A stretch of 64,000 nucleotides of DNA from a virus (lineage: Duplodnaviria; Caudoviricetes): IMG/VR virus record IMGVR_UViG_3300030330_003356, positions 20,988 through 84,987 of that record; one strand, 5' to 3'. Below are positions 9,112 through 56,139 of the stretch, piece after piece. Position numbers and translations under genes: made by a program. Position 1 is the first letter of the stretch; the number at the start of each line of letters is the position of its first letter. Below the pieces are notes generated by a model. It saw nothing but the letters and a program-made list of their open reading frames with translations, was not told the DNA's origin and made no database searches.

Positions 9112-10119
9112 ATGTTTGAATACTTTTACCATGAAATTCTGAGACGAACGATTATTTCGTTTGGAAGTCTTTTTAATGGAATTGAAATCAAGCATTTAGA
9201 TTCCAGTGGAGACGTTGATGAAGTTATCAAGGTTCCATTGGCATACGGGCCTACCCAAAAGTTTTTAGCAAGACTTGAGCAATCGGCAGATCTCAACAAA
9301 CCAACGTCGATTACTCTCCCAAGAATGTCATTTGAATTCACGGGACTTCAGTATGATGGCACAAGAAAAGTAACTACAACTCAAACTTTTAAATCCCAGA
9401 GTGTAGGAATTGCAACGGCAATCAGAAAAACCTACATGCCTGTTCCTTACAATATGTCGTTTGAACTATCAATCTTCACTAAGTTGAATGATGATATGCT
9501 TCAAATTGTTGAACAGATTTTACCATATTTTCAACCAGCATACACTCTTTCAGTTAATCTGGTAGATACAATTGGTGAGAAAAGAGATATTCCCATCGTG
9601 ATTGAAAATGTCACAATGCAAGATGATTACGAAGGCAATTACAGCACCAGACGCTCTCTTCTCTATACAATAAGATTTACTGCTAAGACATATCTGTTTG
9701 GCCCTGTTGGAGATACAACAAAGGCATCCAGAGATCTTATCAAAAAGGTTCGTGTTGGATATGTTCAAGACGATACTTCGACTCCAACCAGAGATCTTAC
9801 CTATACTGTTATTCCAAGAGCGACACAGAGTTACACAGACAACGTTGTAACAAATCTCGCAGAAGATGTTGGAACGACTACCAATATTCTGCAAGTAAAT
9901 GATTCTTCTGGAATTGCAGAAAATACTTATATCACGATTAATAATGAATCTATATACGTCGATCGAAAAGAAGGGAATACTTTATTTACGAAGAGAGGAC
10001 AAGACAACACTATTACAGGTTCCCATGTTCGTGGCACTGCAGTCAATCTCATCACTGATGCTGATGATGCTCTTATTGAAATAGGTGATGACTTTGGATT
10101 TGACGGGAGTATCTCATGA
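9112..10119 (+). CDS. gp15: Tail sheath stabilizer / completion protein gp15
   Basis: FYHEILRRTIISFGSLFNGI, KVPLAYGPTQKFLARL, LPRMSFE, QIVEQILPYFQP. Confidence 0.92.
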   Translation: MFEYFYHEILRRTIISFGSLFNGIEIKHLDSSGDVDEVIKVPLAYGPTQKFLARLEQSADLNKPTSITLPRMSFEFTGLQYDGTRKVTTTQTFKSQSVGIATAIRKTYMPVPYNMSFELSIFTKLNDDMLQIVEQILPYFQPAYTLSVNLVDTIGEKRDIPIVIENVTMQDDYEGNYSTRRSLLYTIRFTAKTYLFGPVGDTTKASRDLIKKVRVGYVQDDTSTPTRDLTYTVIPRATQSYTDNVVTNLAEDVGTTTNILQVNDSSGIAENTYITINNESIYVDRKEGNTLFTKRGQDNTITGSHVRGTAVNLITDADDALIEIGDDFGFDGSIS

Positions 10120-10535
10120 GTTTCGATAGTCTGAATGAAGCATTTGACGTATCGAGTGAGATCGTCTCTAGTGAACCTGAGCAGGTAAAACCTGTTCAGA
10201 AAGAGGTTGATGCAATTAAAACTGATACAAGAAAAGATTACGAATACACAAGAGGTAATCTTTATTCACTGATTGAAAAGGGACAAGAAGCAGTCAACGG
10301 TATACTTGAACTCGCACAGGAAACAGAGCAAGCAAGAGCATATGAGGTTGCAGGACAATTAATTAAGAGCGTTGCTGATGCAACTGACAAACTTCTTGAT
10401 TTACAGAAGAAACTAAAAGACGTTGAAGAGGAGTCACAATCTAAAGGCCCCACAAATGTCACAAACGCACTTTTTGTTGGTTCTACAGCAGATCTCGCTA
10501 AACTTTTAAAGCAGAATAAACAGCAAGATAAATAA
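10116..10535 (+). CDS. gp16: Terminase small subunit gp16
   Basis: DYEYTRGNLYSLIEKGQEA, RAYEVAGQLIK, NALFVGSTADL; position before gp17. Confidence 0.9.
   Translation: MSFDSLNEAFDVSSEIVSSEPEQVKPVQKEVDAIKTDTRKDYEYTRGNLYSLIEKGQEAVNGILELAQETEQARAYEVAGQLIKSVADATDKLLDLQKKLKDVEEESQSKGPTNVTNALFVGSTADLAKLLKQNKQQDK
10528..10534 (+). promoter_or_regulatory. Late promoter (ATAAATA)
   Basis: TAAATA core at the gp16 stop, upstream of the 1258-aa ORF. Confidence 0.55.
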
Positions 10536-10577: not shown

Positions 10578-13500
10578 ATGGCGCAGGCTGAAGATAAAAA
10601 CTTGCCGTCTTTGGACGATTATATTATTGAAGATGAATTTCCTTCAGTCGAAGAAGCGGTTGATAATGATTTGCCGTCTATAGAAGATAATAAAGAAAGC
10701 AATTTACCATCAATTGAAGAAGAAGTTGAAGCAGAACTTCCCTCAGTTGAAGAATTTGTAGAAAAAGAAGAAGAAGAGTTAGTCGAAGAAGTCATAGTAG
10801 AAGAAGACTTAACTCTTGACGAAGTAAAAGAACTAATTGAAGAAGTCAAGGCAGAAATACTTGACATTCCTCAAATCAAGCATTTTGACGAAGTTTTAGA
10901 AAAACTTTGTGAAGCAGTAGATCAAGTAAAATCAGAAATTCCTGAGGTTCCAGAACCAAAGGTATATGATGATGAAATCGAAGCAATTTGTGATGCCATT
11001 GATTCTGTAAAGGAAAATATTTCTTCTCTACCAGAAGTCAAGTATTATGATGAGCAAGTTCAAAATATTGAAGACAGAATAGATTCTGTTATTCAGGAAG
11101 TTACAAATCTTCCAGAACCAAAATATTACGATACAGATCTTGACTCGATAAAAGAGGACATCACTAAGGTAAGAGAAGAACTTGCTCCACTCCCTTGGGT
11201 TGAAAATACATTTTCGGGTATTGAAGAAAATTTTGAAAAAGTATCAGATGTAATCGATACATTAAAAGAAAAGTTAAATTTTAACTTTGACGAATATTCT
11301 GATTCTATAGATGTCAAGTTCTTTGAGAGTAAAGTTGAAACTCAAGGAATCAAAGAAGAGTTTGAATCTGAGAAAGAGAAAATATGGGATGAACTCAAAA
11401 AGTCCTCTGTCAAAATTTTTGAATATCAAAAAACATTCAAAGATGATGATAGAAAGTTAAAGAAACAAATTCTTGGTGAATATAATAAACTCAAGAATAA
11501 TATTAAAAAGGAACTTGAAGAAGCGACTGACAAGAGTATAAAAACTGATGAACTTCTTCTTGGATATTTTACTGAACTTAAAGGAGAGATATCAAATCTT
11601 CCAGAAGTAAAATATTATGATGAAGAAATTGATGAACTTCAAAAATTAGTCAGTAAGTTCAATAAAAGATTTTCTCCGGTAGAAGGAGATATTAAATCTC
11701 TCTATAGAATTGTAGAGGATATTAAAAAAACACAGATTGAACTTAATGAGCAGATTCTGGATGAGCCTGCCGATGTAAGTCAAGATGTAGGTGGTGGTAA
11801 AGATCCATTGACACCCACAGATCAAAAGTTTGCAACGCTTGATGATCTTTCCAAACATTACACACTTTTTGTAAATCGTATTCAGCAACAACTCTCTACT
11901 GTTGGCGGAGGCGGTGCAGGATTTATCAAAGATCTTTCAGACGTTGATATTTCTGAATTAGCAGATGGATATATTCTTCAATATAACGCATCAGAAAATA
12001 AGTGGGAAACAGTTGCCAACACTGGAGGTGGATCAGTTGGTGTTGCGACAGCCGCTGCTTCTCTTGTACTTGATGCTAGAAATAATAATATTGGATATGG
12101 ATTAACCATAGGTACACCAGTATATCAGACTGGATATAATAGTGGACAAAATAGAATTAATATTGAAGAAGCAAGAGCATCTCAGTCTTCAACAATGCCA
12201 GCAAAAGGTGTTGTCCGTACTGATCTTGCAAATAATACTAATGGCACCATAATTGTATATGGTGAGTTAGAGGGAGTTGACACCAGAGATTTTGAAGTTG
12301 CGGATGAACTATATGTAGCTCCTGGTGGTGGACTTACAAATGTTCGTCCTACGGATCCAACACATCTGGTTCAGAAGATTGCTGTTGTTCTGAAGAAGTC
12401 AAATAACGGCGCGATACTTGTTTATGGTGCTGGAAGAACTAATGATGTACCCAACAATATTAGTATTGCTGGATCAGTAACCGCTGCATCTTTCCACGGT
12501 GATGGATCTGGATTAACTAATGTAGGATTTGACACAAACTTTATTGTAGGAACTGCCATCACAATGGTTGATGGTATATTCAGTGGAAATTTATCTGTTG
12601 GTGGCACACTTACATATCAAGATGTAGAACATATTGATTCTGTTGGTATTATCACCGCACAGCAGGGTGTTCAGATTCTTAATAATGGACTGAACATAGT
12701 TAGTGGTATTGCAACTGTTGTAGGAACTTCTGGTACAACAACGATAGGTGGTGTAGGAAATACGGCGTTATACGTTGATGGTAACGCCCGAGTCGTTGGT
12801 GTCCTAACAGTTGGTAGAGCATCTGTCACGATTGATGGTGATAATAATCAAGTTTCTGTTGGTATTGTTACCATTACCAATACGAGCGTAGTTATTGGTG
12901 ATAATGTTACTATTGACACAGGTGCATCTGGTATCAACTCTGCACCCAATGTTTTATACGTTGCGAAAGATGGAGATGATGATAATAATGGAACATCTAT
13001 TGATAATGCATTCCTAACGATCAAAGCTGCTGTAGGTGCCGCTCAGTCTGGAACAACAGTTAAGGTGTTGTCAGGTAATTATGTTGAGGATAATCCAATT
13101 GAACTTCCTGCCTTTAGTGCTGTAGTAGGTGATGACTTAAGAACTTGCAAAATTCTTCCTAATAATGCAACTTCTGACATATTCCATGTTAACAAAGGAT
13201 GTAAGTTGCAAAATATGACTTTCTCTGGACATTTATCACCTGCTGCTGCTGTTGCATTCCCAGATAGTGGTGCAACTAATGTTGGTGGTGGTAAATGGAA
13301 AGGCCCATACGTCCAAAACTGCACAAGTGATACTACAACTGGAACTGGCATCAGAATTGATGGAAGTAAAGCGGTAAAAACAAAGTCAATGAATGTTGAC
13401 GCTTTTACTCAATATAATCAAGGTGGTGTTGGTGTCGCTGTAACTAATGAGGGTTATGCACAACTAGTATCTGTATTTACTATTTGCTGCGATAAAGCAA

Positions 13501-14354
13501 TTACTTGTCATGCTGGTGGACAAGCAGATGTTGCCAATAGTAATTGTAGTTTTGGTACACTTGGTTTAGTCGCTGATGGAAAGGGCGATCTTCAATATAT
13601 TGGTACTTGTACTGCCGCTGCTGATGCTGCTCAAGACAATGTTACTATCAATGTTGGTGCAGCAACCACACGTCCATATGATGGACAGATTGTATTCTTT
13701 GGCGAACTGTTTGAGTCTGTAGAAACTATTACAGTTGGTTCTGGAGGAACAGGATATACATCTACTCCTACAGTTACAGTAGATGCTCCAACAGGAGCTA
13801 GTGGAGAAACCGCTACTGCTTTTGCAACTTTAGAAGGAGAGAGTGTTGCATCTATTACTATTATAAGTAGCGGATCGCAATATCAAACAACACCTACTGT
13901 AACTATCAGTGCTCCTGATGTGGGCGTAAATACCGCAACTGCCACTGTTACGATGGCACCGATTTACTATACAATAAATAGTTCAACACCAATAGTATCT
14001 GGAATAACTACATTAACTCTTGAAGAAAACTTAATCAATGCAGTTGGTGTAGGAACATCGGTTCATTTCTTCCAACAAAGCAAGATTGTTGCTAGTTCAC
14101 ATACTTTTGAATATATCGGTGCTGGAAACACGATTACGGAAGCAACTCCAAAGCGTGGTGGCGTTACTATTCAGGCAAATGAAGTTACCAAAACAAACGG
14201 AGGTAATGTTGTTTATACCAGCACTGATCAATCTGGTAACTTCAGAATAGGTGATGACTTACAAATTAACCAGAACACTGGTACAATTAGTGGTAGAGCA
14301 TTCTCTAAGAGTTTGTTCTCAGAAATGACACCGTTTATTTTAGCATTGAGTTAA
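10578..14354 (+). CDS. 1258-aa protein: acidic repeat/coiled-coil N-half fused to a fibre-like, beta-helix C-half
   Basis: LPS[IV]EE and P[EQ][VP]KYYD repeats, then a GGGG hinge, then PNVLYVAKDGDDDNNGTSIDNAFLTIKAA, typical of the start of a right-handed beta-helix. Confidence 0.7.
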   Translation: MAQAEDKNLPSLDDYIIEDEFPSVEEAVDNDLPSIEDNKESNLPSIEEEVEAELPSVEEFVEKEEEELVEEVIVEEDLTLDEVKELIEEVKAEILDIPQIKHFDEVLEKLCEAVDQVKSEIPEVPEPKVYDDEIEAICDAIDSVKENISSLPEVKYYDEQVQNIEDRIDSVIQEVTNLPEPKYYDTDLDSIKEDITKVREELAPLPWVENTFSGIEENFEKVSDVIDTLKEKLNFNFDEYSDSIDVKFFESKVETQGIKEEFESEKEKIWDELKKSSVKIFEYQKTFKDDDRKLKKQILGEYNKLKNNIKKELEEATDKSIKTDELLLGYFTELKGEISNLPEVKYYDEEIDELQKLVSKFNKRFSPVEGDIKSLYRIVEDIKKTQIELNEQILDEPADVSQDVGGGKDPLTPTDQKFATLDDLSKHYTLFVNRIQQQLSTVGGGGAGFIKDLSDVDISELADGYILQYNASENKWETVANTGGGSVGVATAAASLVLDARNNNIGYGLTIGTPVYQTGYNSGQNRINIEEARASQSSTMPAKGVVRTDLANNTNGTIIVYGELEGVDTRDFEVADELYVAPGGGLTNVRPTDPTHLVQKIAVVLKKSNNGAILVYGAGRTNDVPNNISIAGSVTAASFHGDGSGLTNVGFDTNFIVGTAITMVDGIFSGNLSVGGTLTYQDVEHIDSVGIITAQQGVQILNNGLNIVSGIATVVGTSGTTTIGGVGNTALYVDGNARVVGVLTVGRASVTIDGDNNQVSVGIVTITNTSVVIGDNVTIDTGASGINSAPNVLYVAKDGDDDNNGTSIDNAFLTIKAAVGAAQSGTTVKVLSGNYVEDNPIELPAFSAVVGDDLRTCKILPNNATSDIFHVNKGCKLQNMTFSGHLSPAAAVAFPDSGATNVGGGKWKGPYVQNCTSDTTTGTGIRIDGSKAVKTKSMNVDAFTQYNQGGVGVAVTNEGYAQLVSVFTICCDKAITCHAGGQADVANSNCSFGTLGLVADGKGDLQYIGTCTAAADAAQDNVTINVGAATTRPYDGQIVFFGELFESVETITVGSGGTGYTSTPTVTVDAPTGASGETATAFATLEGESVASITIISSGSQYQTTPTVTISAPDVGVNTATATVTMAPIYYTINSSTPIVSGITTLTLEENLINAVGVGTSVHFFQQSKIVASSHTFEYIGAGNTITEATPKRGGVTIQANEVTKTNGGNVVYTSTDQSGNFRIGDDLQINQNTGTISGRAFSKSLFSEMTPFILALS

Positions 14355-14688: not shown

Positions 14689-15053
14689 TGCCATATATCG
14701 TAGGTTCATTAACAAAAACTAATTTAAATATGACTGGTGGTGTTGTTCAGTCGGGAGTGACGACAACCACCACTACAGATGAGACTGCGATTATTTCTTT
14801 ATCAGCACCGAAATATCAATCTGTTGAATTTAAGATACAAGTAACTGAATCTAGTTCTTATAATTCGACAATCGTAAGAGCGATGCATGATGGAACATCT
14901 GCATATGTTACTGAATATGGAACATTACAAGTTCCCTCAGGAATTGCAACATTTTCTGCAGATGTAAATGCTGGACAGTTGAGACTTTTAGCATATCCCA
15001 CAACTTCTGGTTTGACAACTTTTAGCGTGATTTACACTGCATTAAATTCATAA
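14688..15053 (+). CDS. Hypothetical beta-rich protein, probably virion-associated, 121 aa
   Basis: YQSVEFKIQV...HDGTSAYVTEYG...FSADVNAGQLRLLAYP; start overlaps the upstream stop. Confidence 0.65.
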   Translation: MPYIVGSLTKTNLNMTGGVVQSGVTTTTTTDETAIISLSAPKYQSVEFKIQVTESSSYNSTIVRAMHDGTSAYVTEYGTLQVPSGIATFSADVNAGQLRLLAYPTTSGLTTFSVIYTALNS

Positions 15054-15056
15054 ATA
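15049..15056 (+). promoter_or_regulatory. Late promoter (CATAAATA) upstream of the 611-aa modular protein
   Basis: TAAATA core overlapping the upstream stop codon. Confidence 0.6.
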
Positions 15057-15077: not shown

Positions 15078-16913
15078 ATGAAAAAGTGTCCATCAGGACA
15101 GTATTACTGTTTCACTGATAAAAAATGTAAGAAGATTCCCATGGGATACCATGTGGGTGGAAGAGGTATGCTTGAAAAGGACACCGAATCTGAAACCAAT
15201 AAAAATGGTAACGGTAATGGAAACGGTAATGGCAATGGAAATGGTAATGGTGGCAACGGCGGCAGTGGCAACGGTAATGGTGGTAATGGCGGGGGTGTGG
15301 GAGAAGAAGTAGTCTACGAGGGTGGAAACCTTCGTCAATGGTTCAAGGGTTCTCGCTCTAAAGGCGGTAAACCCGGATGGGTTCAAGTCGTATCAGGAAA
15401 ACCCTGTGCTAGACAACCCGGACAAAAAACCACACCTAAGTGTGTATCATCAGCAAAAAGAGCTTCGATGTCAGACGCTGAAAGAAAGTCTGCACAAAGA
15501 AGAAAAAGAGCAGCAGATCCAGGACAACCACAAAAATCTGGAGCTGCAAAACCAACCTATGTAAAAACTGATAGTCCTAGAAAGATGAAGAAAGAGGAGA
15601 TCGAACTGATTCAAGAAAAGGACAAAAAAGGTAAGGGCAGCGGAACTAAAGATGCCTGTTACCATAAAGTAAAATCTCGTTACAGTGTTTGGCCTAGTGC
15701 ATATGCGTCAGGAGCACTAGTCAAATGTCGTAAGGTAGGCGCTGCAAACTGGGGTAATAAGTCTGAAGGACTTTCCTGGGGCGAACTTACTGAAAAATTT
15801 AAAACACAATATGGTGACAAAACCAAATTGTCACAATCATCAGAACGTAAATCTCTTGGTAGAGGTTCCTCTATCAAAGATGGATCTAAGAAGAGTGGTT
15901 ACGAATCTAAGAAAGAGTTTCGTGATCAGTCTATGAAACTCAGAAAGCATCGCGAAAGATTTGGTGATCTCGCTAAAGAAGAGACATCACTCGATGAGAA
16001 GTGCTGGCCTGGGTATGAAAAGAAGGGTATGAAGACTATGTTTGGAAAGAGATATCCAAACTGTGTCAAAAAGAAAAAAACCAGAAAAGAGTCGGTTGAA
16101 GAAGCAGTAAGACTTCCCGCCAAAACTGGTAACATAATTGATGTGCATTTTGTCTTCAGAAGCAGAAGCTTTATGATCAAAATGTTTTTCCCTAAAGTTG
16201 GCATACCCAGCAGATCTGATGTAAGTGATCAAATTAACAAAGTTTATCCTGGCGCAAAACTAACGTTTTTCAGAGTCTCAGACTATGAACCAGGACAACC
16301 ACTCTTCAGAGTCACAGAAGAAAGAGCAGGAGATCAAGCAGTTGAGGAAACTACTAGATCTAACGCAACAGCATCAGGAAAAATCCTTAAGGATGCCGAG
16401 GGGACATTAACCGAAAAAAAGTATAAGAATGATCCCTGCTGGGATTCTCATAAGATGGAAGGGATGAAAAAAAAGGGAAACAAAATGGTTCCTAACTGCG
16501 TTCCTAGAAATGAAGAAGTTGATGTAAATGAGGCAACTATGGAGAAACCTCTTTCCGCTCAAGAGATTGCTCTTCAAAAGAAAAAGATGCAAATTGATAT
16601 GCAGATTCTTAAAAAAAGAAAACAGTCAATGAGTGATATTAAGAATGAAGAAGTAATTCTTGAAAAATCTGCTGCTTGGACAAGAAAAGCAGGAAAGAAC
16701 AAAGAGGGTGGACTCAACGAAAAAGGACGTAAGTCTTATGAAAGAGAGAATCCAGGTTCTGATCTCAAAGCACCTTCTAAGAAAGTCGGTAACAAAAGAA
16801 GAGCATCATTCTGTGCAAGAATGAAAGGAATGAAGAAGAAACTTACTTCTGCCAAAACTGCTAATGATCCCGATAGCAGAATCAATAAATCATTAAGAGC
16901 CTGGAACTGTTGA
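15078..16913 (+). CDS. 611-aa modular basic protein (candidate protease-processed head polyprotein)
   Basis: Lys/Arg-rich modules separated by EE-x(n)-[LIV]-x-E linkers; lies under a late promoter just before gp17. Confidence 0.75.
   Translation: MKKCPSGQYYCFTDKKCKKIPMGYHVGGRGMLEKDTESETNKNGNGNGNGNGNGNGNGGNGGSGNGNGGNGGGVGEEVVYEGGNLRQWFKGSRSKGGKPGWVQVVSGKPCARQPGQKTTPKCVSSAKRASMSDAERKSAQRRKRAADPGQPQKSGAAKPTYVKTDSPRKMKKEEIELIQEKDKKGKGSGTKDACYHKVKSRYSVWPSAYASGALVKCRKVGAANWGNKSEGLSWGELTEKFKTQYGDKTKLSQSSERKSLGRGSSIKDGSKKSGYESKKEFRDQSMKLRKHRERFGDLAKEETSLDEKCWPGYEKKGMKTMFGKRYPNCVKKKKTRKESVEEAVRLPAKTGNIIDVHFVFRSRSFMIKMFFPKVGIPSRSDVSDQINKVYPGAKLTFFRVSDYEPGQPLFRVTEERAGDQAVEETTRSNATASGKILKDAEGTLTEKKYKNDPCWDSHKMEGMKKKGNKMVPNCVPRNEEVDVNEATMEKPLSAQEIALQKKKMQIDMQILKKRKQSMSDIKNEEVILEKSAAWTRKAGKNKEGGLNEKGRKSYERENPGSDLKAPSKKVGNKRRASFCARMKGMKKKLTSAKTANDPDSRINKSLRAWNC
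15204..15296 (+). repeat. Asn-Gly low-complexity coding repeat
   Basis: AATGGT/AACGGT/AATGGA/AATGGC units encoding (NG)n and GGN; codons vary synonymously. Confidence 0.9.
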
Positions 16914-16919
16914 TAACTT

Positions 16920-18578
16920 ATGTCTGATAATGTATATCTTGGCAATCCTAATCTAAAAAAAGCGAATACCCCGATTGAGTTCACTGAAGAACAGATTATT
17001 GAATTTGTTCAGTGTCAACGGGATCCGGTTTATTTTGCCAATAAGTATGTAAAGATTGTTAGTTTGGATGAAGGACTTGTTCCATTCAAACCATATCGAT
17101 TTCAGGAAAAGTTAATTACTAATTTCCATGAAAATAGATTTAACATCTGCAAAATGCCGCGCCAGACTGGCAAGTCTACTACGGTGGTTTCTTATCTTCT
17201 GCATTATGCGGTTTTTAATGACAGCGTTAATATTGGCATACTTGCTAACAAAGCAGCAACAGCTAGGGAACTTTTAGGAAGATTACAAACTGCATACGAG
17301 AACTTGCCTAAGTGGATGCAGCAGGGTATTATTGCATGGAATAAGGGTTCGCTGGAGTTAGAGAATGGCAGTAAGATATTGGCAGCTTCTACGTCTGCGA
17401 GTGCTGTCCGAGGTATGTCATTTAACATCCTCTTTCTCGACGAATTCGCGTTCGTCCCAAATCACATTGCTGACTCGTTCTTTGCCTCTGTTTATCCTAC
17501 TATTACTTCTGGTAAAAACACCAAGGTAATTATTGTATCTACCCCTCACGGTATGAATCACTTCTACCGTATGTGGAGTGATGCAGAGAAGAGTAAGAAT
17601 GAATATATTCCAACTGATGTTCACTGGAGTGAAGTTCCAGGTAGAGATGAAGCGTGGAAAGAACAAACTATTGCAAACACATCGGAACAGCAGTTCAAGA
17701 TTGAGTTTGAGTGTGAGTTCTTAGGATCTATTGACACACTTATTGCTGCTAGTAAATTAAAATCTCTGGTTTACGATCACCCCATACAATCAAATGCAGG
17801 GTTAGAAGTATATGAACAACCAGTAAAAGATCACGATTATGTGATTACAGTTGACGTTGCAAGAGGTGTGGGAGAAGACTATTCAGCATTCGTATGCGTT
17901 GATATCACATCTTTCCCTCACAAGGTTGTTGCCAAATATAGAAACAATGACATTAAACCGATGTTGTTTCCAAATGTTATATGGGAAGTAGCGAAAAACT
18001 ATAATAGCGCATATGTATTGTGTGAAGTTAATGACGTTGGCGATCAAGTAGCTTCACTTCTTCATTATGACTTAGAGTATCAGAACGTTTTGATGTGCTC
18101 TATGAGAGGTAGAGCAGGACAAGTTGTAGGACAAGGATTCTCTGGTAAGAAGACTCAATTAGGCGTGAAGATGTCTAAGACAGTCAAGAAGGTTGGAGCA
18201 CTCAATCTGAAAACAATGATTGAAGAAGATAAACTCCTTTTTAAAGATCTAGATATTATATCAGAACTGACTACATTCATCTCAAAGAATAATTCATTTG
18301 AGGCTGAAGATGGTTGTCACGATGACTTGGCAATGTGTCTTGTCATTTATGCTTGGTTAGTTGCTCAGGATTACTTTAAAGAACTTACTGATCAAGACAT
18401 CAGGAAGAGACTTTACGAAGAGCAGAAAAATCAAATTGAACAAGACATGGCACCATTTGGTTTTATGGACGATGGACTTGATGATGCAAGTTTTGTCGAT
18501 GGTGAAGGTGATCGTTGGTTTGGTGCATCTGAATACGGCGAAACTGCTGGTGGTATGGATTACATGTGGAAGTATTAA
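16920..18578 (+). CDS. gp17: Terminase large subunit gp17
   Basis: Walker A KMPRQTGKST, Walker B ILFLDEFAF, IIVSTPHG, nuclease motifs TVDVARG and HDDLAM. Confidence 0.97.
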   Translation: MSDNVYLGNPNLKKANTPIEFTEEQIIEFVQCQRDPVYFANKYVKIVSLDEGLVPFKPYRFQEKLITNFHENRFNICKMPRQTGKSTTVVSYLLHYAVFNDSVNIGILANKAATARELLGRLQTAYENLPKWMQQGIIAWNKGSLELENGSKILAASTSASAVRGMSFNILFLDEFAFVPNHIADSFFASVYPTITSGKNTKVIIVSTPHGMNHFYRMWSDAEKSKNEYIPTDVHWSEVPGRDEAWKEQTIANTSEQQFKIEFECEFLGSIDTLIAASKLKSLVYDHPIQSNAGLEVYEQPVKDHDYVITVDVARGVGEDYSAFVCVDITSFPHKVVAKYRNNDIKPMLFPNVIWEVAKNYNSAYVLCEVNDVGDQVASLLHYDLEYQNVLMCSMRGRAGQVVGQGFSGKKTQLGVKMSKTVKKVGALNLKTMIEEDKLLFKDLDIISELTTFISKNNSFEAEDGCHDDLAMCLVIYAWLVAQDYFKELTDQDIRKRLYEEQKNQIEQDMAPFGFMDDGLDDASFVDGEGDRWFGASEYGETAGGMDYMWKY

Positions 18579-23497: not shown

Positions 23498-23737
23498 ATG
23501 GACGAACTTATGGATATGATGGTATCCGATGAGTCCCCGTCGCAAATTAGCGATAGGATCAAGGAGATACTGTTTGGAAAAGCTGCTGAAAGGATCGATG
23601 CATTTCGTCCCATGGTAGCAAATGGAGTATTTGGTGAGGATGATATTGAAGTTGAGGATGGAGAAGAGGAAACTCTTGAAGTCACTGACGAATTAGAAAC
23701 TGAAACCGAAGACGAAACCGAAGAGGAGTCTGAATAA
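23498..23737 (+). CDS. Acidic prohead core protein, positional gp67 analogue
   Basis: 79 aa, very Glu-rich C-terminus; sits between portal and protease genes as gp67 does in T4. Confidence 0.55.
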   Translation: MDELMDMMVSDESPSQISDRIKEILFGKAAERIDAFRPMVANGVFGEDDIEVEDGEEETLEVTDELETETEDETEEESE

Positions 23738-24297
23738 TGGCACATCGTACAGTTGGTGCTGGACAAAGTATAACTACAAGTGGTAGTTCTGCTAAAAGTG
23801 ATGCAATTGCTGTAAAATCTAGCGTTTTAAGAATTACCGCCAGAGATGAGGATGCACATATTGCTATTGGCACAGAACCAACAGCAACAGTGACAGATTA
23901 TATTATTCTTGCCGGAACTAGTGAAACTTTGGGTGTTACTAAAGCATCTCAGAGAGTTAGAACTATTGAAAGTTCAGGCACAAAAACAATTGTCACTTGT
24001 CCCGAAGGCACTCAACAACCATTTGCCGTAGGAGACTGTGTTACTCTCGAAGCAAGTAATGCAGATAGTAACTGGACAACAGTTATTAGTCATGTCGGTG
24101 TTGATAGCGTTGATTCAAGTGCAGATTTTAGTGGTTCTTTTAGCACTAAGGTAACTCTAAGTGCTGATACAAGTGGCATTTCTACAGATTTTGTTAGTAG
24201 TGACGCTACCCTTCGTAAATCGATCAAAGTAGGTGCTGTTGCTACTGGCGCTGGATCTATTTTCGTTCAACAAGTACAAATAACCGGAGTTGCCTGA
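23737..24297 (+). CDS. Hypothetical beta-rich protein, 186 aa, in the head module
   Basis: Stop/start overlaps on both sides; Ser/Thr/Val/Ala-rich composition. Confidence 0.65.
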   Translation: MAHRTVGAGQSITTSGSSAKSDAIAVKSSVLRITARDEDAHIAIGTEPTATVTDYIILAGTSETLGVTKASQRVRTIESSGTKTIVTCPEGTQQPFAVGDCVTLEASNADSNWTTVISHVGVDSVDSSADFSGSFSTKVTLSADTSGISTDFVSSDATLRKSIKVGAVATGAGSIFVQQVQITGVA

Positions 24298-24947
24298 TGA
24301 AACTTATCAGAGAGGAAATCGAATCCGTCGAATTCATTGTCGAATCGAAAGGCGGTAAAAAACAACTTTATATTGAAGGTGTATTCCTTCAAGGAAACAT
24401 TAAAAACCGTAATGGTAGAATGTATCCTATGGAGACACTTCGCCGTGAAGTTGGTAGATATAACGAAAACCATGTTCAGGCAGGTAGAGCACTTGGTGAA
24501 CTTGGACACCCTGACGGCCCTACCGTTAACTTAGATCGTGTATCTCACAAGATTGTTTCTCTGAGAGAGTCTGGTTCTAACTTTATTGGTAAAGCGAAGA
24601 TCCTAAACACTCCCATGGGTAAGATTGCAGGATCTCTCATTGATGAGGGCGTCAAACTTGGTGTTTCTTCTAGGGGTATCGGTTCATTAAAGATGACACG
24701 CGAAGGTGTCAATGTTGTTGGTGATGATTTTATGTTAGCAACTGCTGCTGATATTGTTGCCGATCCTTCTGCTCCTGATGCATTTGTTGAGGGTATTATG
24801 GAAGGAAAAGACTGGGTATGGGATGGTGGTATTCTTCGTGAAAAATTTGCGGAGAAAACATATAGAGAGATTAACACTCTCGCTACTCAAAAGCAACTTG
24901 ACGAGAAGAAGTTGGATTTATTCAACGATTTTCTCAATAACCTTTGA
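24297..24947 (+). CDS. gp21: Prohead protease gp21
   Basis: YIEGVFLQGNIKNRNGRMY, RALGELGHP (catalytic His), GVKLGVSSRG (catalytic Ser), DIVADPSAPDAF. Confidence 0.96.
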   Translation: MKLIREEIESVEFIVESKGGKKQLYIEGVFLQGNIKNRNGRMYPMETLRREVGRYNENHVQAGRALGELGHPDGPTVNLDRVSHKIVSLRESGSNFIGKAKILNTPMGKIAGSLIDEGVKLGVSSRGIGSLKMTREGVNVVGDDFMLATAADIVADPSAPDAFVEGIMEGKDWVWDGGILREKFAEKTYREINTLATQKQLDEKKLDLFNDFLNNL

Positions 24948-26155: not shown

Positions 26156-27541
26156 ATGTTCCAATCCGAACAGCTGCAGGAGAAGTGGGCACCCCTTCTT
26201 GAGTACGATGGACTTGAGTCTATCAAAGATCCTCATAGAAAGGCTGTAACCGCTGTCCTGCTCGAAAACCAAGAAAAATTCCTGAAGGAGTCTTCCTCCT
26301 TTGAGACTGGTGGATCCCTCCTGAGTGAGGCTGCTCCTACCAACTCAACCGGTTCTAGCGTAGACAACTTCGATCCCGTTCTGATCTCCCTGATCAGACG
26401 CTCCATGCCTAACCTGATCGCTTACGATCTGGCTGGCGTTCAACCCATGAGCGGCCCCACTGGACTCATCTTCGCGATGCGTTCCCGCTATCAGAACCAG
26501 ACTGGAACCGAAGCGTTCTACAACGAGCCTGATTCTGCATTCTCCGGACAGAACTTCGGACGCAACCTGGAAGGTGGCTTCTCCGATGGTACTGCTGGTA
26601 TGGGTACTACCAGTCAGTCTGGTACTAATCCCTCCGTCCTGAACCCTGTTGGTTCTGCCAACTCCAACGCATATAACCTTGGACAAGGTATGCAGACTTC
26701 CGATGCTGAGGCACTCGGAGATGCTGCTGCTAATGCCTTCAACCAGATGGCATTCAGCATTGAGAAGGTAACCGTTACTGCTAAGTCACGCGCCCTCAAA
26801 GCTGAGTACTCCCTGGAACTGGCACAGGATCTGAAAGCAATCCACGGTTTAAACGCCGAGGCTGAACTCGCCAACATCCTCTCTACTGAGATTCTGGCTG
26901 AGATCAACCGCGAAGTTATCCGTACTATCTACAAGGTTGCTGAGCAAGGTGCTGTTCAGAACACCGCTACCGCTGGTGAGTTCGATCTCGACATCGACTC
27001 CAACGGACGCTGGAGTGTTGAGAAGTTCAAGGGACTGCTGTTCCAGATCGAAAGAGACGCTAACGCGATTGCACAAAGAACTCGTAGAGGAAAGGGCAAC
27101 ACGATCCTTTGCTCTGCTGACGTTGCTTCTGCTCTCACTATGGCTGGTGTACTTGACTACACCCCCGCTCTGAACGCTAACCTGAACGTTGATGACACCG
27201 GTAACACCTTCGCTGGTGTTCTGCAAGGTAAGTATCGTGTATACATCGATCCTTATGCTGCTAACCTGACTTCAGGTAACGCAACCCCCGGTAACCAGTA
27301 TTACGTTGTCGGTTATAAGGGTTCTTCCCCCTATGACGCTGGACTGTTCTACTGCCCCTACGTTCCCCTGCAAATGGTTCGCGCCGTTGGAGAGGACACC
27401 TTCCAACCCAAGATTGGCTTCAAGACTCGCTACGGAATGGTAGCGAACCCCTTCGCTGAAGGAACCGAAGCACAACTGGGTGCCCTGAACGTTAATCAGA
27501 ACCGTTACTACAGACGTGTTGCTGTTAAGAACCTGATGTGA
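26156..27541 (+). CDS. gp23: Major capsid protein gp23
   Basis: LISLIRRSMPNLIAYDLAGVQPMSGPTGLIFAMR, SRALKAEYSLELAQDLKAIHG, FYCPYVPLQM, FQPKIGFKTRYG; likely maturation site LLSE|AAPTN. Confidence 0.98.
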   Translation: MFQSEQLQEKWAPLLEYDGLESIKDPHRKAVTAVLLENQEKFLKESSSFETGGSLLSEAAPTNSTGSSVDNFDPVLISLIRRSMPNLIAYDLAGVQPMSGPTGLIFAMRSRYQNQTGTEAFYNEPDSAFSGQNFGRNLEGGFSDGTAGMGTTSQSGTNPSVLNPVGSANSNAYNLGQGMQTSDAEALGDAAANAFNQMAFSIEKVTVTAKSRALKAEYSLELAQDLKAIHGLNAEAELANILSTEILAEINREVIRTIYKVAEQGAVQNTATAGEFDLDIDSNGRWSVEKFKGLLFQIERDANAIAQRTRRGKGNTILCSADVASALTMAGVLDYTPALNANLNVDDTGNTFAGVLQGKYRVYIDPYAANLTSGNATPGNQYYVVGYKGSSPYDAGLFYCPYVPLQMVRAVGEDTFQPKIGFKTRYGMVANPFAEGTEAQLGALNVNQNRYYRRVAVKNLM

Positions 27542-51808: not shown

Positions 51809-53038
51809 ATGAAAAGTTTCTTTCAGTTCCTTGGTGAAGCAGAAACACAAGCAGCATCACAGGCGAAAAAACTTGGTTTGAAAGGCGACGGACATGGTGG
51901 CTGGGTAAACCGTGCTGGAGAGTTTGTCGCTAAAACCGTTGACGGTAAGTTAAAGTTTTTTGATAAGAATCAAAAACCTGGTAAGGATCCAGATCAAACT
52001 CCTAATACTAAAAAGGTAGAACCCAAACTTAAAACCAAAACAATGTCTGTGGACAAATCTCCACAGAAAGCACCAAAGAAAGGTGGAAAGGAAGGAGACG
52101 AAGAAGTAATCGGATCTGATACTTTGACTCTCGCTTTCGGTAGATTTAATCCTCCTACTGTTGGGCATGAAAAACTTTTACAGATGGCAAAGAAAGTTGC
52201 CGCTAATGGTACTTTAAGGATTTATCCTTCTAGGACTCAAGACAAGAAGAAGAATCCTCTTGATCCTGATATTAAAGTATCTTACATGAGAAAAATGTTC
52301 CCTGATTTTGAGGAGAACATTATTAATGATAGTGAGATGAGATCTATCTTTAATGTTCTGCAGAGTGCAGATAGAGATTTCAAAAATATCAATATCATTG
52401 TAGGTTCGGATCGTCAAGCAGAATTTGAAAACCTGTCAAATAAGTACAATGGTGAACTTTATAACTTCGATGAGATTAGAGTGATATCTGCTGGTGCAAG
52501 AGATGCAGATGCTGAAGGAATCGAAGGAATGTCTGCTTCTAAGATGCGTAAAGCAGTTGTAGATGGAGATATGGAATCCTTTAAAAAAGGACTTCCAAAG
52601 ATTGTTACAGATTCTGAGGCACAGTCACTCTTCGATGCTGTTGCTGATGGAATGAAAATTAAGAAGAAACAGAAAGTCGCTGCTGAGATGTGGGAGATTG
52701 CTCCTAAGTATGATGCTAAAGGACTTAGAGAGCAATATGTAAATGGACTCATCTATAAGATTGGCGATATTGTAGAAAATTTGAACACAGGATTGATTGG
52801 TGAGATTGTCCGTAGAGGAACCAATCATCTTATTTGTGTCACTAAAGAAAATATCATGTTCAAGTCTTGGATTCGTGATGTTATGGAGTATACTGAAGTT
52901 AAAATGGATCGTCGTATGAGAGTTCCTGGTAAACCTAACACTCTGGATGGCACTGGTGGTTATCTCAAGAATGCTATGGCGGCAACTGGCACCTCTACTA
53001 TTAAGAATTTCATAAATAAGTACAAAGCTAAAAAGTAG
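51809..53038 (+). CDS. HIGH-superfamily nucleotidyltransferase (cyanophage cytidylyltransferase)
   Basis: FGRFNPPTVGHEKL (HxGH-like), IIVGSDR, MSASKMR; N-terminus resembles the T4 capsid-targeting sequence. Confidence 0.8.
   Translation: MKSFFQFLGEAETQAASQAKKLGLKGDGHGGWVNRAGEFVAKTVDGKLKFFDKNQKPGKDPDQTPNTKKVEPKLKTKTMSVDKSPQKAPKKGGKEGDEEVIGSDTLTLAFGRFNPPTVGHEKLLQMAKKVAANGTLRIYPSRTQDKKKNPLDPDIKVSYMRKMFPDFEENIINDSEMRSIFNVLQSADRDFKNINIIVGSDRQAEFENLSNKYNGELYNFDEIRVISAGARDADAEGIEGMSASKMRKAVVDGDMESFKKGLPKIVTDSEAQSLFDAVADGMKIKKKQKVAAEMWEIAPKYDAKGLREQYVNGLIYKIGDIVENLNTGLIGEIVRRGTNHLICVTKENIMFKSWIRDVMEYTEVKMDRRMRVPGKPNTLDGTGGYLKNAMAATGTSTIKNFINKYKAKK
53011..53018 (+). promoter_or_regulatory. Late promoter (CATAAATA) upstream of the 783-aa protein
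   Basis: TAAATA core 30 nt before the ATG. Confidence 0.5.
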
Positions 53039-53047
53039 TAGATAGCC

Positions 53048-55399
53048 ATGTCTAATGGAATCGGTAAGAATCCTTTGAATGATATTTCAAAGGTATACTT
53101 AGAAATGCGTGAGTCTTATAAGATTGAACCTCCTAAGGAGAGATTGAAGACTGATCGCAATATGTTCAATATTCCTAAGGACGAACAAGAGGCAGCTAGA
53201 GAGCGTCTTAAGGCAAAGGCTGCTGCTAAGCGTGCTGAGCGTGCTAAGATGAAAGAAGCACTTGATCCTGTTGGCAAGGAAGATGGTGATGTCAATAATG
53301 ATGGTAAGAAAGATAGCACCGATTCTTATCTGTTGAAGCGTCGTAAGGCAATCGCCAAAGCGATGAAGACTCGCAAAGAAGAATTAGAGACTACTGAGAT
53401 TGAAATCACAGAAGAAATGGTGGCAAGTAATGCTGCTCATTACTTCTATGAAGAGGGTATTAATGAAGAGGGTGTAGAAATATTCATTGAAGAACTTGGA
53501 CTCGAAGAGTTTGTATCTTTTGTAGAGGATCTGTCTTCTGACTTGCTTACTGAAGCGAGAGCGGCAAGAAGAGCACGTAAAGGTGCAAAATCATATGATC
53601 AAGTAAAGGCAGAGATTGATGCCAAAGAGGCTTCCAAGAAAAAAGCATCTCCCGCAAAGGTTCAGACTGCTACAGCAACTGCTAAAAAGCAACAACCTAA
53701 GAAGAGAGGTGCGTTAGATAGCATTGCAAGAACGGTTCTTAAGGGGATGGATCGTCATAAAGCGGCAATGGCAAGAGCTAAGAGTGATATTCAAACCACC
53801 AAAAAGATTGCTTCAAAGGTTGGTAAAGGTGCAAGGGAATTTGGTAAAGGATTTGCTTCTGGTGTAAAAACTGCAGGTACAACTGCAAAGGTTGCAAAGA
53901 AAGCAATGGAAGAGTACTCTGATTGGAGATCTGATCTCGTAGAAGCAGATCTTATTGAAGTTATGGATGAGGACGAAGCAGAAAAACCCATCAAAGAAAA
54001 GAAGGTAAATAATAAAGTAAAGATCAACCCTAAACTTGGTGAAGCCATTGAAGAGATTGGTGGAACTTTGCTTGAGGAAGTTGAGATTGATGAACTTGAT
54101 ATCATCATTGAGAGTGTATATGATGAACTGATTGAAGAAGGATACTCTGAGGATGATGTTGAGGATGCGATTGAGTTTGCTCTGACTGAACAACTTAATG
54201 AGGTAAGTGATCGTTATTATGATTCTGCAGTAAAAGCATCAAAGGATGCTGCTGCCAAGAAAAAAAGAGAAGAGATGATGAAGAGAGCGAAAGGACGCCT
54301 CAGATTCATGAAGAGAAAGGCTGGTGAAGCATCTGCCAAACTGAGAGGAAAGGCTGCTGGTGCTGCTGTTGCTGCTACCATGGCGGGTGGTATTGCTAAA
54401 GATCAGGCAAGAAGAACTGGTAGAGCAGTTAAGCAGGCAGTAACAAGTGCTCCTGGAAAAGCGAAGAGAAGCATTAAGGATAGAATTAAGAAAGCAGCAC
54501 TTGGTGTTGCTAAGCGCATGAGCGAGGAAAAGCAGGATCTTCAAGAACTTCCTATTGTCCCCATGGCTGCTGGTGCCGCTGCTTTAGGTGGTGCTGCCAT
54601 GGCGATTAATAAAGCGATGAAATCTGCAAATACTCATAGCGATAAGTCAGTTGGAAAACCAACAATCCAGGGTGCTGCTTCTGGTATGAGAAATAAAAAT
54701 GCTAAACTGCAAAAAGCGTTAGATCTGCTGAAGCAATCTCATGAGCCTGAGGGTGATGTTATCGATGAGAAGTTTGGCATGGCAGCAGACACTTCTAAAC
54801 CTCAGTCTCCAAGGCCAACAAAAATGCCTAAGAGCAGAGAAAGAAACATCGGGAAGCATGACGACTGGAAGGATAAGCATCCTGACAAGAGAGATTTCGG
54901 TGAAAGGCCTTCCAAAGGACAGAAACTGAAGTCCAGAGCATCCGCTGTTGTCCAGTCCCAGAGACGCACCGACAAGGAAGTTGGTGTCAGAGAGCAGAGC
55001 GAACTTGAGGAAGGCAAGAAAAAAATGCCTTACGTCAAGATGTTCCGCAAGGCAGGTAACCTTGGACGTGACGGAAGTCCTGAAGCAATGGAGCGTTCTA
55101 AGAAAATCACTGGTGTGATGAACAAGAATGCTGAAAGAGTTGCTGCTCACCGCGAAAGAGATGATGCTGCCAAGGATGCTAAAGCAGCAAGAAAGGCAAA
55201 AATGAAAGAAGAATTATCCATTGATCAGCAGATGAAGATCTCTCGTGATGCAGCAAAGGATAGAAATCCTAATCCTGATCACAAGGCAATTCGTGGTAAG
55301 ATGTTGAAGAAACCTCTTCCTAAGGACACTAGAACAGATGCTCAGAAAATGACTGATGCAACTGGCCCCCGTCCTGGTTCCCGTTACAGAGGTGACTGA
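53048..55399 (+). CDS. 783-aa modular protein with alternating acidic and basic blocks
   Basis: Basic Lys/Ala/Arg modules begin right after LxE motifs (LLTE|ARAARR, QLNE|VSDR, DLQE|LPIV, VIDE|KFG, ELEE|GKKK). Confidence 0.75.
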   Translation: MSNGIGKNPLNDISKVYLEMRESYKIEPPKERLKTDRNMFNIPKDEQEAARERLKAKAAAKRAERAKMKEALDPVGKEDGDVNNDGKKDSTDSYLLKRRKAIAKAMKTRKEELETTEIEITEEMVASNAAHYFYEEGINEEGVEIFIEELGLEEFVSFVEDLSSDLLTEARAARRARKGAKSYDQVKAEIDAKEASKKKASPAKVQTATATAKKQQPKKRGALDSIARTVLKGMDRHKAAMARAKSDIQTTKKIASKVGKGAREFGKGFASGVKTAGTTAKVAKKAMEEYSDWRSDLVEADLIEVMDEDEAEKPIKEKKVNNKVKINPKLGEAIEEIGGTLLEEVEIDELDIIIESVYDELIEEGYSEDDVEDAIEFALTEQLNEVSDRYYDSAVKASKDAAAKKKREEMMKRAKGRLRFMKRKAGEASAKLRGKAAGAAVAATMAGGIAKDQARRTGRAVKQAVTSAPGKAKRSIKDRIKKAALGVAKRMSEEKQDLQELPIVPMAAGAAALGGAAMAINKAMKSANTHSDKSVGKPTIQGAASGMRNKNAKLQKALDLLKQSHEPEGDVIDEKFGMAADTSKPQSPRPTKMPKSRERNIGKHDDWKDKHPDKRDFGERPSKGQKLKSRASAVVQSQRRTDKEVGVREQSELEEGKKKMPYVKMFRKAGNLGRDGSPEAMERSKKITGVMNKNAERVAAHRERDDAAKDAKAARKAKMKEELSIDQQMKISRDAAKDRNPNPDHKAIRGKMLKKPLPKDTRTDAQKMTDATGPRPGSRYRGD

Positions 55400-56139
55400 T
55401 GCCTTTAGATCTGAAGAAAGACGATATGGGGGATGTCATTAAGGACTTTTATAAGTCCAAGGCACCCCAATTCAAAGGTAAGTCTAAGAAAAAAAGAAGG
55501 GAGATGGCCATCGCTGCCAAGTTAAGTGCAGAGCGTGGCCCTCTTCCCGAAGAGGATAATCCTCGTATTCCTAGAAAGAAGGGACAACCTGCTAATTCTA
55601 AGAAACATTCTGATCTTTACACTGATGAGAATCCTAAGGGAACTATTCATGGTTTAGGATTTAAAGATGTTGCTACTGCGAAAGCATCAGTCTCTAAGAT
55701 TCGCAATTCATCTAGATCTCATGCTCATAAGATCCAGGCAGCAGTTGCTATGGAACAAAGAGCAAGAGAGATGGGTAAGACTTCAGAAGCAGCAGTCTTC
55801 AGAAAATATATTAATGCGATGAAAAAGAAGACTAAGAAGATGAATGAGGGGTGGAGTGACAAGTATAAGAAGTCAATTGATTGTAATAACCCCAAAGGAT
55901 TCTCACAGAGAGCACATTGTCAGGGTAAAAAGAAGAAAGTAGACGAAACTGCTTACTACAAAACTGACAAGTATAATAAAAAGGTTGCAGACGCAGAAAA
56001 GCGTAACAAGGAAAAAGACAAACGAATGAAGTTTGGTAAGTTTTATGATAAAGCAAAGGAAGCAAGAGATCGTTTACGTCCTGGTGAAGTAAAACGTTAC
56101 GATAAGAAGTTAGGAAGGTACGTTTCTAATAAAGAGTGA
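55399..56139 (+). CDS. 246-aa modular basic protein
   Basis: Four Lys-rich modules separated by LPE|E, KMNE|G and KVDE|T. Confidence 0.72.
   Translation: MPLDLKKDDMGDVIKDFYKSKAPQFKGKSKKKRREMAIAAKLSAERGPLPEEDNPRIPRKKGQPANSKKHSDLYTDENPKGTIHGLGFKDVATAKASVSKIRNSSRSHAHKIQAAVAMEQRAREMGKTSEAAVFRKYINAMKKKTKKMNEGWSDKYKKSIDCNNPKGFSQRAHCQGKKKKVDETAYYKTDKYNKKVADAEKRNKEKDKRMKFGKFYDKAKEARDRLRPGEVKRYDKKLGRYVSNKE

Follow-up and report, generated by a model that had tools for sequence, protein, structure and literature searches.

Could a single late gene supply a T4-like cyanophage with a whole set of internal head proteins? T4-like cyanophages are among the most abundant viruses of the ocean, and to our knowledge their internal head proteins have yet to be defined. 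The question is raised by one open reading frame (ORF) in the 64,000-nucleotide stretch analyzed here (the window), which is part of an 85-kb T4-like cyanophage contig with a Kyanoviridae-type gene order. Its product is a basic protein of 611 residues and 68 kDa, composed of small modules whose junctions carry the motif hydrophobic-x-Glu. The gene probably encodes a precursor of internal head proteins, that is, a polyprotein version of the T4 internal proteins. A description of such a cyanophage polyprotein was not found in the searched literature on DUF6321, capsid targeting, and internal head proteins.

15078..16913, + strand: 611-residue modular basic protein, candidate polyprotein; T4-GC119 / PHROG 727 family, with DUF6321 at the C-terminus

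Lys and Arg make up 21.8% of this protein and Asp and Glu 11.6%, giving an isoelectric point (pI) of 9.9. It is a member of PHROG 727 (E=5e-127), and all of its PHROG matches (727, 3477, and others) are of unknown function. The Pfam scan returned DUF6321 (PF19846) alone, at residues 539-609 (E=1.8e-22), with 80.2 bits against a curated cut-off of 28.5 and with profile positions 1-72 of 72 covered. Among relatives, Pfam detects DUF192 in some and otherwise DUF6321 only.

An earlier, sequence-only reading of this DNA had divided the protein into short basic modules, each following a linker that ends in [LIV]-x-E. This division is confirmed: the protein is a string of about nine small basic modules with disordered linkers, and most modules hold a Cys pair. 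All nine sites named in that reading are present, namely VYE81/G, IQE180/K, LTE239/K, LDE307/K, VEE342/A, VEE424/T, LTE446/K, VNE485/A, and ILE529/K (a slash marks the candidate cut), and four further matches to the motif occur at MLE33/K, VGE76/E, VTE414/E, and LNE548/K. The modules and spacers are as follows.

15078..15176, + strand: module A (residues 1-33), a three-Cys beta-hairpin unit with a predicted local distance difference test score (pLDDT) of 70-78; ends MLE33/K
15177..15320, + strand: Asn/Gly-rich acidic spacer (residues 34-81) with the sites VGE76/ and VYE81/; its length differs among orthologues
15321..15617, + strand: module B (residues 82-180), an LRxWF...PKC unit with 2 Cys and a net charge of +16; ends IQE180/K
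15618..15794, + strand: module C (residues 181-239), a DACYHKV...WPSAYASG unit with 2 Cys, nearly invariant in the family; ends LTE239/K
15795..15998, + strand: module D (residues 240-307), an FKTQYG unit that orthologues keep or lack as a whole; ends LDE307/K
15999..16103, + strand: module E (residues 308-342), a CWPGY...PNC Cys-bracketed beta-hairpin, pLDDT about 80; ends VEE342/A
16104..16319, + strand: module F (residues 343-414), a beta-beta-alpha-beta domain, pLDDT 76-86; ends VTE414/E
16320..16415, + strand: spacer (residues 415-446) with the sites VEE424/T and LTE446/K
16416..16532, + strand: module E2 (residues 447-485), a second hairpin of the PCWD...PNC type; ends VNE485/A
16533..16664, + strand: helical module (residues 486-529); ends ILE529/K
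16665..16910, + strand: module G (residues 530-611), DUF6321, with 2 Cys and an internal LNE548/K motif

The AlphaFold model of the full protein is poor (mean pLDDT 51), with folded units at residues 1-35, 97-143, 308-333, 350-405, 455-478, 490-520, and 570-611. All nine sites from the earlier reading sit between such small folded units, in stretches with pLDDT <50. Three Cys are found in the N-terminal unit, exactly two in each of five other units, and none in the remaining pieces. If all sites were cut, the products would be eight basic peptides of 3.8-10.8 kDa and pI 8.7-10.7 (modules A-F, E2, and the helical module), together with four short spacer pieces that are acidic or neutral; a cut at LNE548 would divide DUF6321 into two basic pieces of 2.0 and 7.1 kDa. 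Foldseek with the full model gave no PDB match at E<=0.001, and BFVD gave family members only. Module F folded alone reached pLDDT 76; its best Z-score was 6.0, to ribosomal protein LX, and no convincing structural relative emerged. A search of the ESM Atlas with this module gave no lead. Its resemblance to the RNA polymerase binder Gp2 of T7 (Z 4.5) was considered and dropped, since neither a fold nor a function can be assigned from scores this low.

Within the 611-residue protein itself, 12 copies of [LIV]xE are present where composition-preserving shuffles give 5.1 (p=0.003), and 6 copies of the narrower [LI]xE where they give 3.0 (p=0.065). This count is weak evidence because gp22, the neighboring fiber protein, and a 783-residue ORF of the same window show similar enrichment. 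The real signal, as far as sequences can tell, is the positional conservation of the motif at module junctions across relatives.

The family offers ample material for such a comparison. One search gave about 8000 relatives of similar length (clusters at 90% identity) and about 6600 shorter ones, and a profile-free scan gave 2491 clusters at 50% identity with DUF6321, in proteins of about 100-1200 residues. Their architectures differ widely (thousands, shuffled) and have recurring module types in common. We collected the residues upstream of nine module cores in 244 family proteins, which gave 284 distinct junction contexts ending in Glu. At P3, Leu, Ile, Val, Met, or Phe was present in 231 of them (81%), compared with 25% at all other Glu residues of the same proteins and 18.5% at Asp; these counts include related sequences and are therefore descriptive rather than independent trials. 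Most of the exceptions consist of hydrophobic-x-E plus a second E. For module E, P3 was hydrophobic in 51 of 52 contexts. An independent set, taken from representatives of the 50%-identity clusters, comprised 123 distinct contexts before DUF6321. Here Glu lay within three residues in 112 of the 123, the last acidic residue was never Asp, P3 was hydrophobic in 87 of the 112 (78%, background 26%), and P1' was Gly, Ala, or Ser in 94 of the 112. Thus, the earlier expectation that LxE sites would be enriched at module boundaries holds in both sets.

P2 varies, as do the surrounding linker sequence and the distance between motif and domain. A conserved Glu with a hydrophobic P3 and a free P2 is the pattern that would be expected of a selected short linear motif. 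In the processing of IPIII by T4 gp21, leader residues 8 and 10 are decisive, and Asp at residue 10 blocks it (PMC9026906). By analogy, the junction pattern, with its invariant Glu, never Asp, and its hydrophobic P3, matches this gp21 rule.

Differences between orthologues respect the same boundaries. The frequent large deletions in relatives span residues 239-306, 413-529, 446-528, and 447-487 in the numbering of the window protein, and both ends of each lie 0-2 residues from a predicted site; insertions fall within linkers. About 90% of close orthologues lack module E2 (447-485) as one block, which begins immediately behind LTE446 and extends to VNE485. The coincidence of module boundaries with indel breakpoints, a check proposed together with the earlier reading, is therefore borne out.

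The enzyme that would do the cutting is encoded in the same window. A prohead protease homologue lies downstream of the gene, and it has His (GELGHP) and Ser (GVSSRG) where the solved 5JBL chain has Ala; we take these two positions to be the catalytic residues. A matching LLSE/AAPT site had been pointed out in gp23. It is present as LSE58/A59 and aligns with the T4 cut between Glu65 and Ala66, and the solved mature chain of T4 gp23 is 65 residues shorter than its precursor, consistent with a cut at LTE65/A66. The gp22 of the window phage contains at least 20 hydrophobic-x-E motifs, and its stretch KEEEVEIEE/ resembles the family linkers.

24297..24947, + strand: gp21 prohead protease homologue, presumed processing enzyme (PHROG 207, E=8e-84; T4 gp21 5JBL, E=5e-23)
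26321..26329, + strand: gp23 propeptide site LSE58/A59, aligned with T4 gp23 LTE65/A66, a known maturation cut

Relatives of the 611-residue protein also carry what look like targeting signals. The capsid-targeting sequence of T4 is MKTYQEFIAE (PMC8442874). Among the 63 distinct N-terminal leaders of family proteins that begin with a module, 50 have hydrophobic-x-E at their end, including minimal leaders M-Q-E/ and M-T-E/, in which the initiator Met supplies P3. Some come close to the T4 sequence: MKTFQEFQAE/, MKSFSEFINE/, MRSYQEFME/, MKTFEQFTE/, and MKNYKEFKELAE/. A scan of the whole contig for T4-like leaders gave one match, in a 409-residue cytidylyltransferase-like protein.

51809..53038, + strand: cytidylyltransferase-like protein, T4-GC190, with the leader MKSFFQFLGE/A

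The T4-GC190 orthologues in P-SSM4, S-ShM2, S-RIM2, and S-RIM8 start with MKKFS[AT]F[LI]xE/A, so that together with the window protein they fit MK[KS]Fxx[F][LI]xE/A, and the conserved leader positions 4, 7, 8, and 10 are those that matter in T4 (PMC9026906). The T4-GC190 family was found in S-SM1 virions (Sullivan et al. 2010), and related enzymes recur in cyanophage virion proteomes. Taken together, the leader, its conserved T4-relevant positions, and the virion detection indicate that T4-style targeting and processing by gp21 are probably at work in these cyanophages.

Two further late ORFs lie near this leader-bearing enzyme. The adjoining one (53048-55399) encodes 783 residues in which acidic segments alternate with basic ones and hydrophobic-x-E is enriched (z=3.6); it has PHROGs 3477 and 38880 in common with the 611-residue protein. 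The other (55399-56139) encodes 246 residues made up of modules (NPRIPRK...HSDLYTDENPKG and GWSDKYKKSIDC) that also occur in long family members, with LPE/, MNE/, and VDE/ as joints. By their sequences, both look like members of the same system.

The motif follows the T4-type head across 80 viral DUF6321 loci, which we classed by tblastn matches to gp15, gp16, gp17, gp18, gp20, gp21, and gp23 of the window phage. At loci with such T4 markers and a located DUF6321, a module or leader ending in hydrophobic-x-E or hydrophobic-x-x-E stands upstream in all but one, where the upstream part ends ...DYQKE. Loci without T4 markers mostly have a free-standing ORF of 85-100 residues that starts M-A-K-[ST]-[PA]-A-W, exactly at the junction. 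Annotated carriers of such stand-alone copies are pelagiphage Greip, cyanopodovirus P-SCSP1g, and Planktothrix phage Pag-Yong1. Since the stand-alone ORFs start at the junction and the T4-marker loci have the motif, the modules are independent functional units in other phages and the linker motif is specific to phages with a T4-type protease. DUF6321 is about 80% identical between pelagiphages and cyanophages, which points to a very conserved target. The motif inside DUF6321, GGLNE/KGR (residues 543-548, window 16704-16721), has Glu in all T4-marker loci among L011-L089, whereas most stand-alone copies in other phages read GGLNAKGR; Ala is also found in two representatives (P0260, P0338). The Glu may mark an additional cleavage site acquired by T4-type phages, or it may be no more than a lineage-specific substitution.

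In another lineage, DUF6321 sits inside a 962-residue protein (L010:7874-10759, P0391; also P0385, P0388, P0371, and P0294), encoded between the portal and the major head protein on a 49-kb viral contig. Its parts are flanked by eight copies of [MFL]-S-A-R-[ED]-x-L-x-x-I-x-x-[FL] and not by hydrophobic-x-Glu. This arrangement suggests that the joint signal is lineage-specific and the cargo module shared.

The gene lies in the structural block and has a late-promoter-like motif upstream. The gene order is gp13-gp14-gp15-gp16, a 1258-residue fiber-like protein, two small ORFs, the 611-residue ORF, and gp17, followed by endonuclease VII, gp18, gp19, gp20, a 186-residue ORF, gp21, gp22, and gp23. 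The usual place of T4-GC119 homologues, one of which (in S-ShM2) bears the label T4-LIKE GC 119, is between the small terminase gene gp16 and the large terminase gene gp17, and with gp16 at 10116-10535 and gp17 at 16920-18578 the window ORF occupies this usual position. The number T4-GC119 was given by Sullivan et al. 2010, who describe the family, to which 'gp114' of P-SSM2 belongs, as a hypothetical/structural protein and member of a mobile cassette. By sequence and gene position the 611-residue protein belongs to the DUF6321, PHROG 727, and T4-GC119 entries, which carry no function. The gene had also been placed under a late promoter, and an ATAAATA heptamer is indeed found before its start codon.

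15050..15056, + strand: late-promoter-like ATAAATA, 22 nt upstream of the ATG (motif-level evidence only)

The number of ATAAATA copies in the window is not above chance (14, with 14.1 expected), so that only their strand and position bias is informative: all 14 lie on the coding (+) strand, most of them 20-40 nt upstream of gene starts.

Two published virion proteomes include homologues. In Table S8 of Sullivan et al. 2010, T4-GC119 is entered among the structural proteins, with 13 peptide counts from S-SM1 virions; the family is absent from the S-PM2 genome (Sullivan et al. 2010). The S-SCSM1 homologue, ORF29, is annotated 'virion protein', and the paper of that record reports 45 virion proteins by mass spectrometry.

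We propose the following scheme, in which cleavage, retention with the DNA, and injection are steps that we infer. The gene would be expressed late and its 611-residue product taken into the prohead core. Given that this copy has no leader, we speculate that its basic modules bind the very acidic gp22 core and are recruited in this way. The T4-type gp21 would then cut after the Glu of the hydrophobic-x-Glu motifs in the disordered linkers, and the released basic peptides (about 4-11 kDa) would remain with the packaged DNA in the virion. Presumably, they would enter the host with the DNA, as the T4 internal proteins do. Charge neutralization of the DNA, anti-defence, and host takeover are candidate roles for the peptides.

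Several observations weigh against this scheme. About 10-20% of junctions have their hydrophobic residue at P4 (LLHTE/G, EVQHE/D) or have none, five sites in the 611-residue protein have Lys at P1', and the relatedness of the sequences behind the junction counts, stated above, also tempers their weight. T4-GC119 was not detected in Syn9 virions (Sullivan et al. 2010), and neither the S-SCSM1 proteome nor that of Sullivan et al. 2010 gives peptide positions or gel sizes. Three more points speak at the same time for the main rival, namely an uncut beads-on-a-string virion protein, for example an exposed one associated with fibers or whiskers, in which the motif would be a linker or domain start and not a cleavage site. 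The gene neighbors tail-fiber-like genes here, in S-SCSM1, and in RN05-S, and the homologues of the latter two are annotated as 'structural' or 'virion' protein. Most modules have exactly two Cys, and paired Cys are more typical of exposed, extracellular domains. Furthermore, module A (MKKCPSGQYYC) stands at the very start of the protein, with no T4-like targeting leader before it.

We nevertheless consider the uncut arrangement unlikely. The Glu at P1, never replaced by Asp, and the hydrophobic P3 are kept while the surroundings and the distance to the domain vary. The motif is also not part of the fold, because stand-alone modules in other phages start after it. The junction residues are predicted to be disordered, and first modules in relatives carry leaders that resemble the T4 targeting sequence.

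A second alternative accepts the protein as a gp21 substrate and makes it a transient accessory of the prohead core or scaffold, like T4 gp22, gp67, and gp68, whose fragments mostly exit the head before DNA packaging. Its motif density equals that of gp22, its acidic linkers are like the KEEEVEIEE/ stretch, and the Syn9 result would fit. However, the modules are strongly basic, unlike acidic scaffold fragments, and for that reason should stay with the DNA. The same modules are also free-standing in phages without nearby T4 markers, including a T7-like podovirus. The family is found in the S-SM1 and S-SCSM1 virion proteomes, yet gp22 is found there too. On balance, such a transient role seems quite improbable to us. 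The weakest alternative, a non-virion fusion of small intracellular effectors that is uncut or cut by another protease, with the virion detections due to contamination, could point to the stand-alone DUF6321 gene of pelagiphage Greip among early/replication-type genes and to gp21 and gp22 in the S-SM1 virion list, which imply some prohead carry-over, but it is hard to credit against the late-promoter-like motif, the location in the structural block, detection in two independent virion proteomes, a motif that fits the phage's own head protease, and the capsid-targeting-like leaders of relatives.

A precursor of internal head proteins, the reading that we prefer, has counterparts in known systems. 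The T4 internal proteins (IPI, IPII, IPIII) are likewise small basic head proteins of T4-type phages that are cut at hydrophobic-x-Glu under the same P3/P1 rule; leaders resembling the 10-residue MKTYQEFIAE occur in family relatives and in T4-GC190 of the window phage, and in both cases related phages differ strongly at the locus. In its rapid module shuffling, the family recalls the variable internal-protein genes of T-even phages (PMC9026906). The T4 internal proteins and Alt have a targeting leader and a single gp21 cut, whereas the window chain has about 13 candidate sites and about nine modules. Moreover, the T4 internal proteins carry an N-terminal leader that the 611-residue protein is without, and cleavage and injection of the latter would be by analogy. 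The Pfam and PHROG scans of the 611-residue protein gave none of the T4 internal-protein families, and no direct sequence comparison with IPI, IPII, or IPIII was run.

The T4 core proteins gp22, gp67, and gp68 resemble it in that one precursor receives many hydrophobic-x-Glu cuts in the prohead, the sites here being predicted ones. In contrast, these core proteins form an acidic scaffold with one conserved architecture, whereas the T4-GC119 family consists of basic, independently folding modules in thousands of architectures. The inner-body and ejection proteins of phiKZ, 201phi2-1, and SPN3US are cut several times C-terminal to Glu by a gp21-like protease, and the fragments stay in the head (PMC9026906). 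They belong to another phage group, with site logos shown apart from those of T4 (PMC9026906), and they are large proteins rather than strings of mini-modules that exist as free-standing genes elsewhere. What sets the window protein apart is that many mini-modules, each folding independently, shuffled freely, and present as a single gene in other phages, are joined in one chain.

A broader view is possible, and we put it forward only tentatively. Aquatic phages might share a pool of dozens of mini-protein cargo modules, which each lineage would assemble into polyproteins with joints that match its own head-maturation machinery: hydrophobic-x-Glu in T4-like cyanophages, eight copies of a 14-residue motif in the other lineage described above, and the module alone in podoviruses. 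The peptides would be pre-made effectors injected with the DNA, and the shuffling would reflect an arms race with host defences.

If the polyprotein reading is true, every virion would deliver basic peptides made in advance, in a set that varies, to Prochlorococcus and Synechococcus cells. This would be a previously unrecognized level of host takeover or anti-defence, with its genes in a region known to be hypervariable, and would explain a very large family of unknown function (>8000 clusters at 90% identity and about 2500 DUF6321 clusters at 50% identity). A T4-like leader together with hydrophobic-x-Glu would then be a simple rule for predicting packaged cargo in metagenomes.

Two neighboring genes deserve mention in their own right. 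The 186-residue ORF (23737-24297) stands before gp21, in the position of T4 gp67/gp68. It has zero [LIV]xE and matches only PHROG 682, of unknown function, and by its sequence it does not look like a protease-cut core protein. The 1258-residue fiber-like protein (10578-14354), encoded after gp16 and before the candidate polyprotein, is acidic in its N-terminal half, where LPS[IV][ED][ED] units repeat, and shows the highest [LIV]xE excess of the window, 38 against 23 expected.

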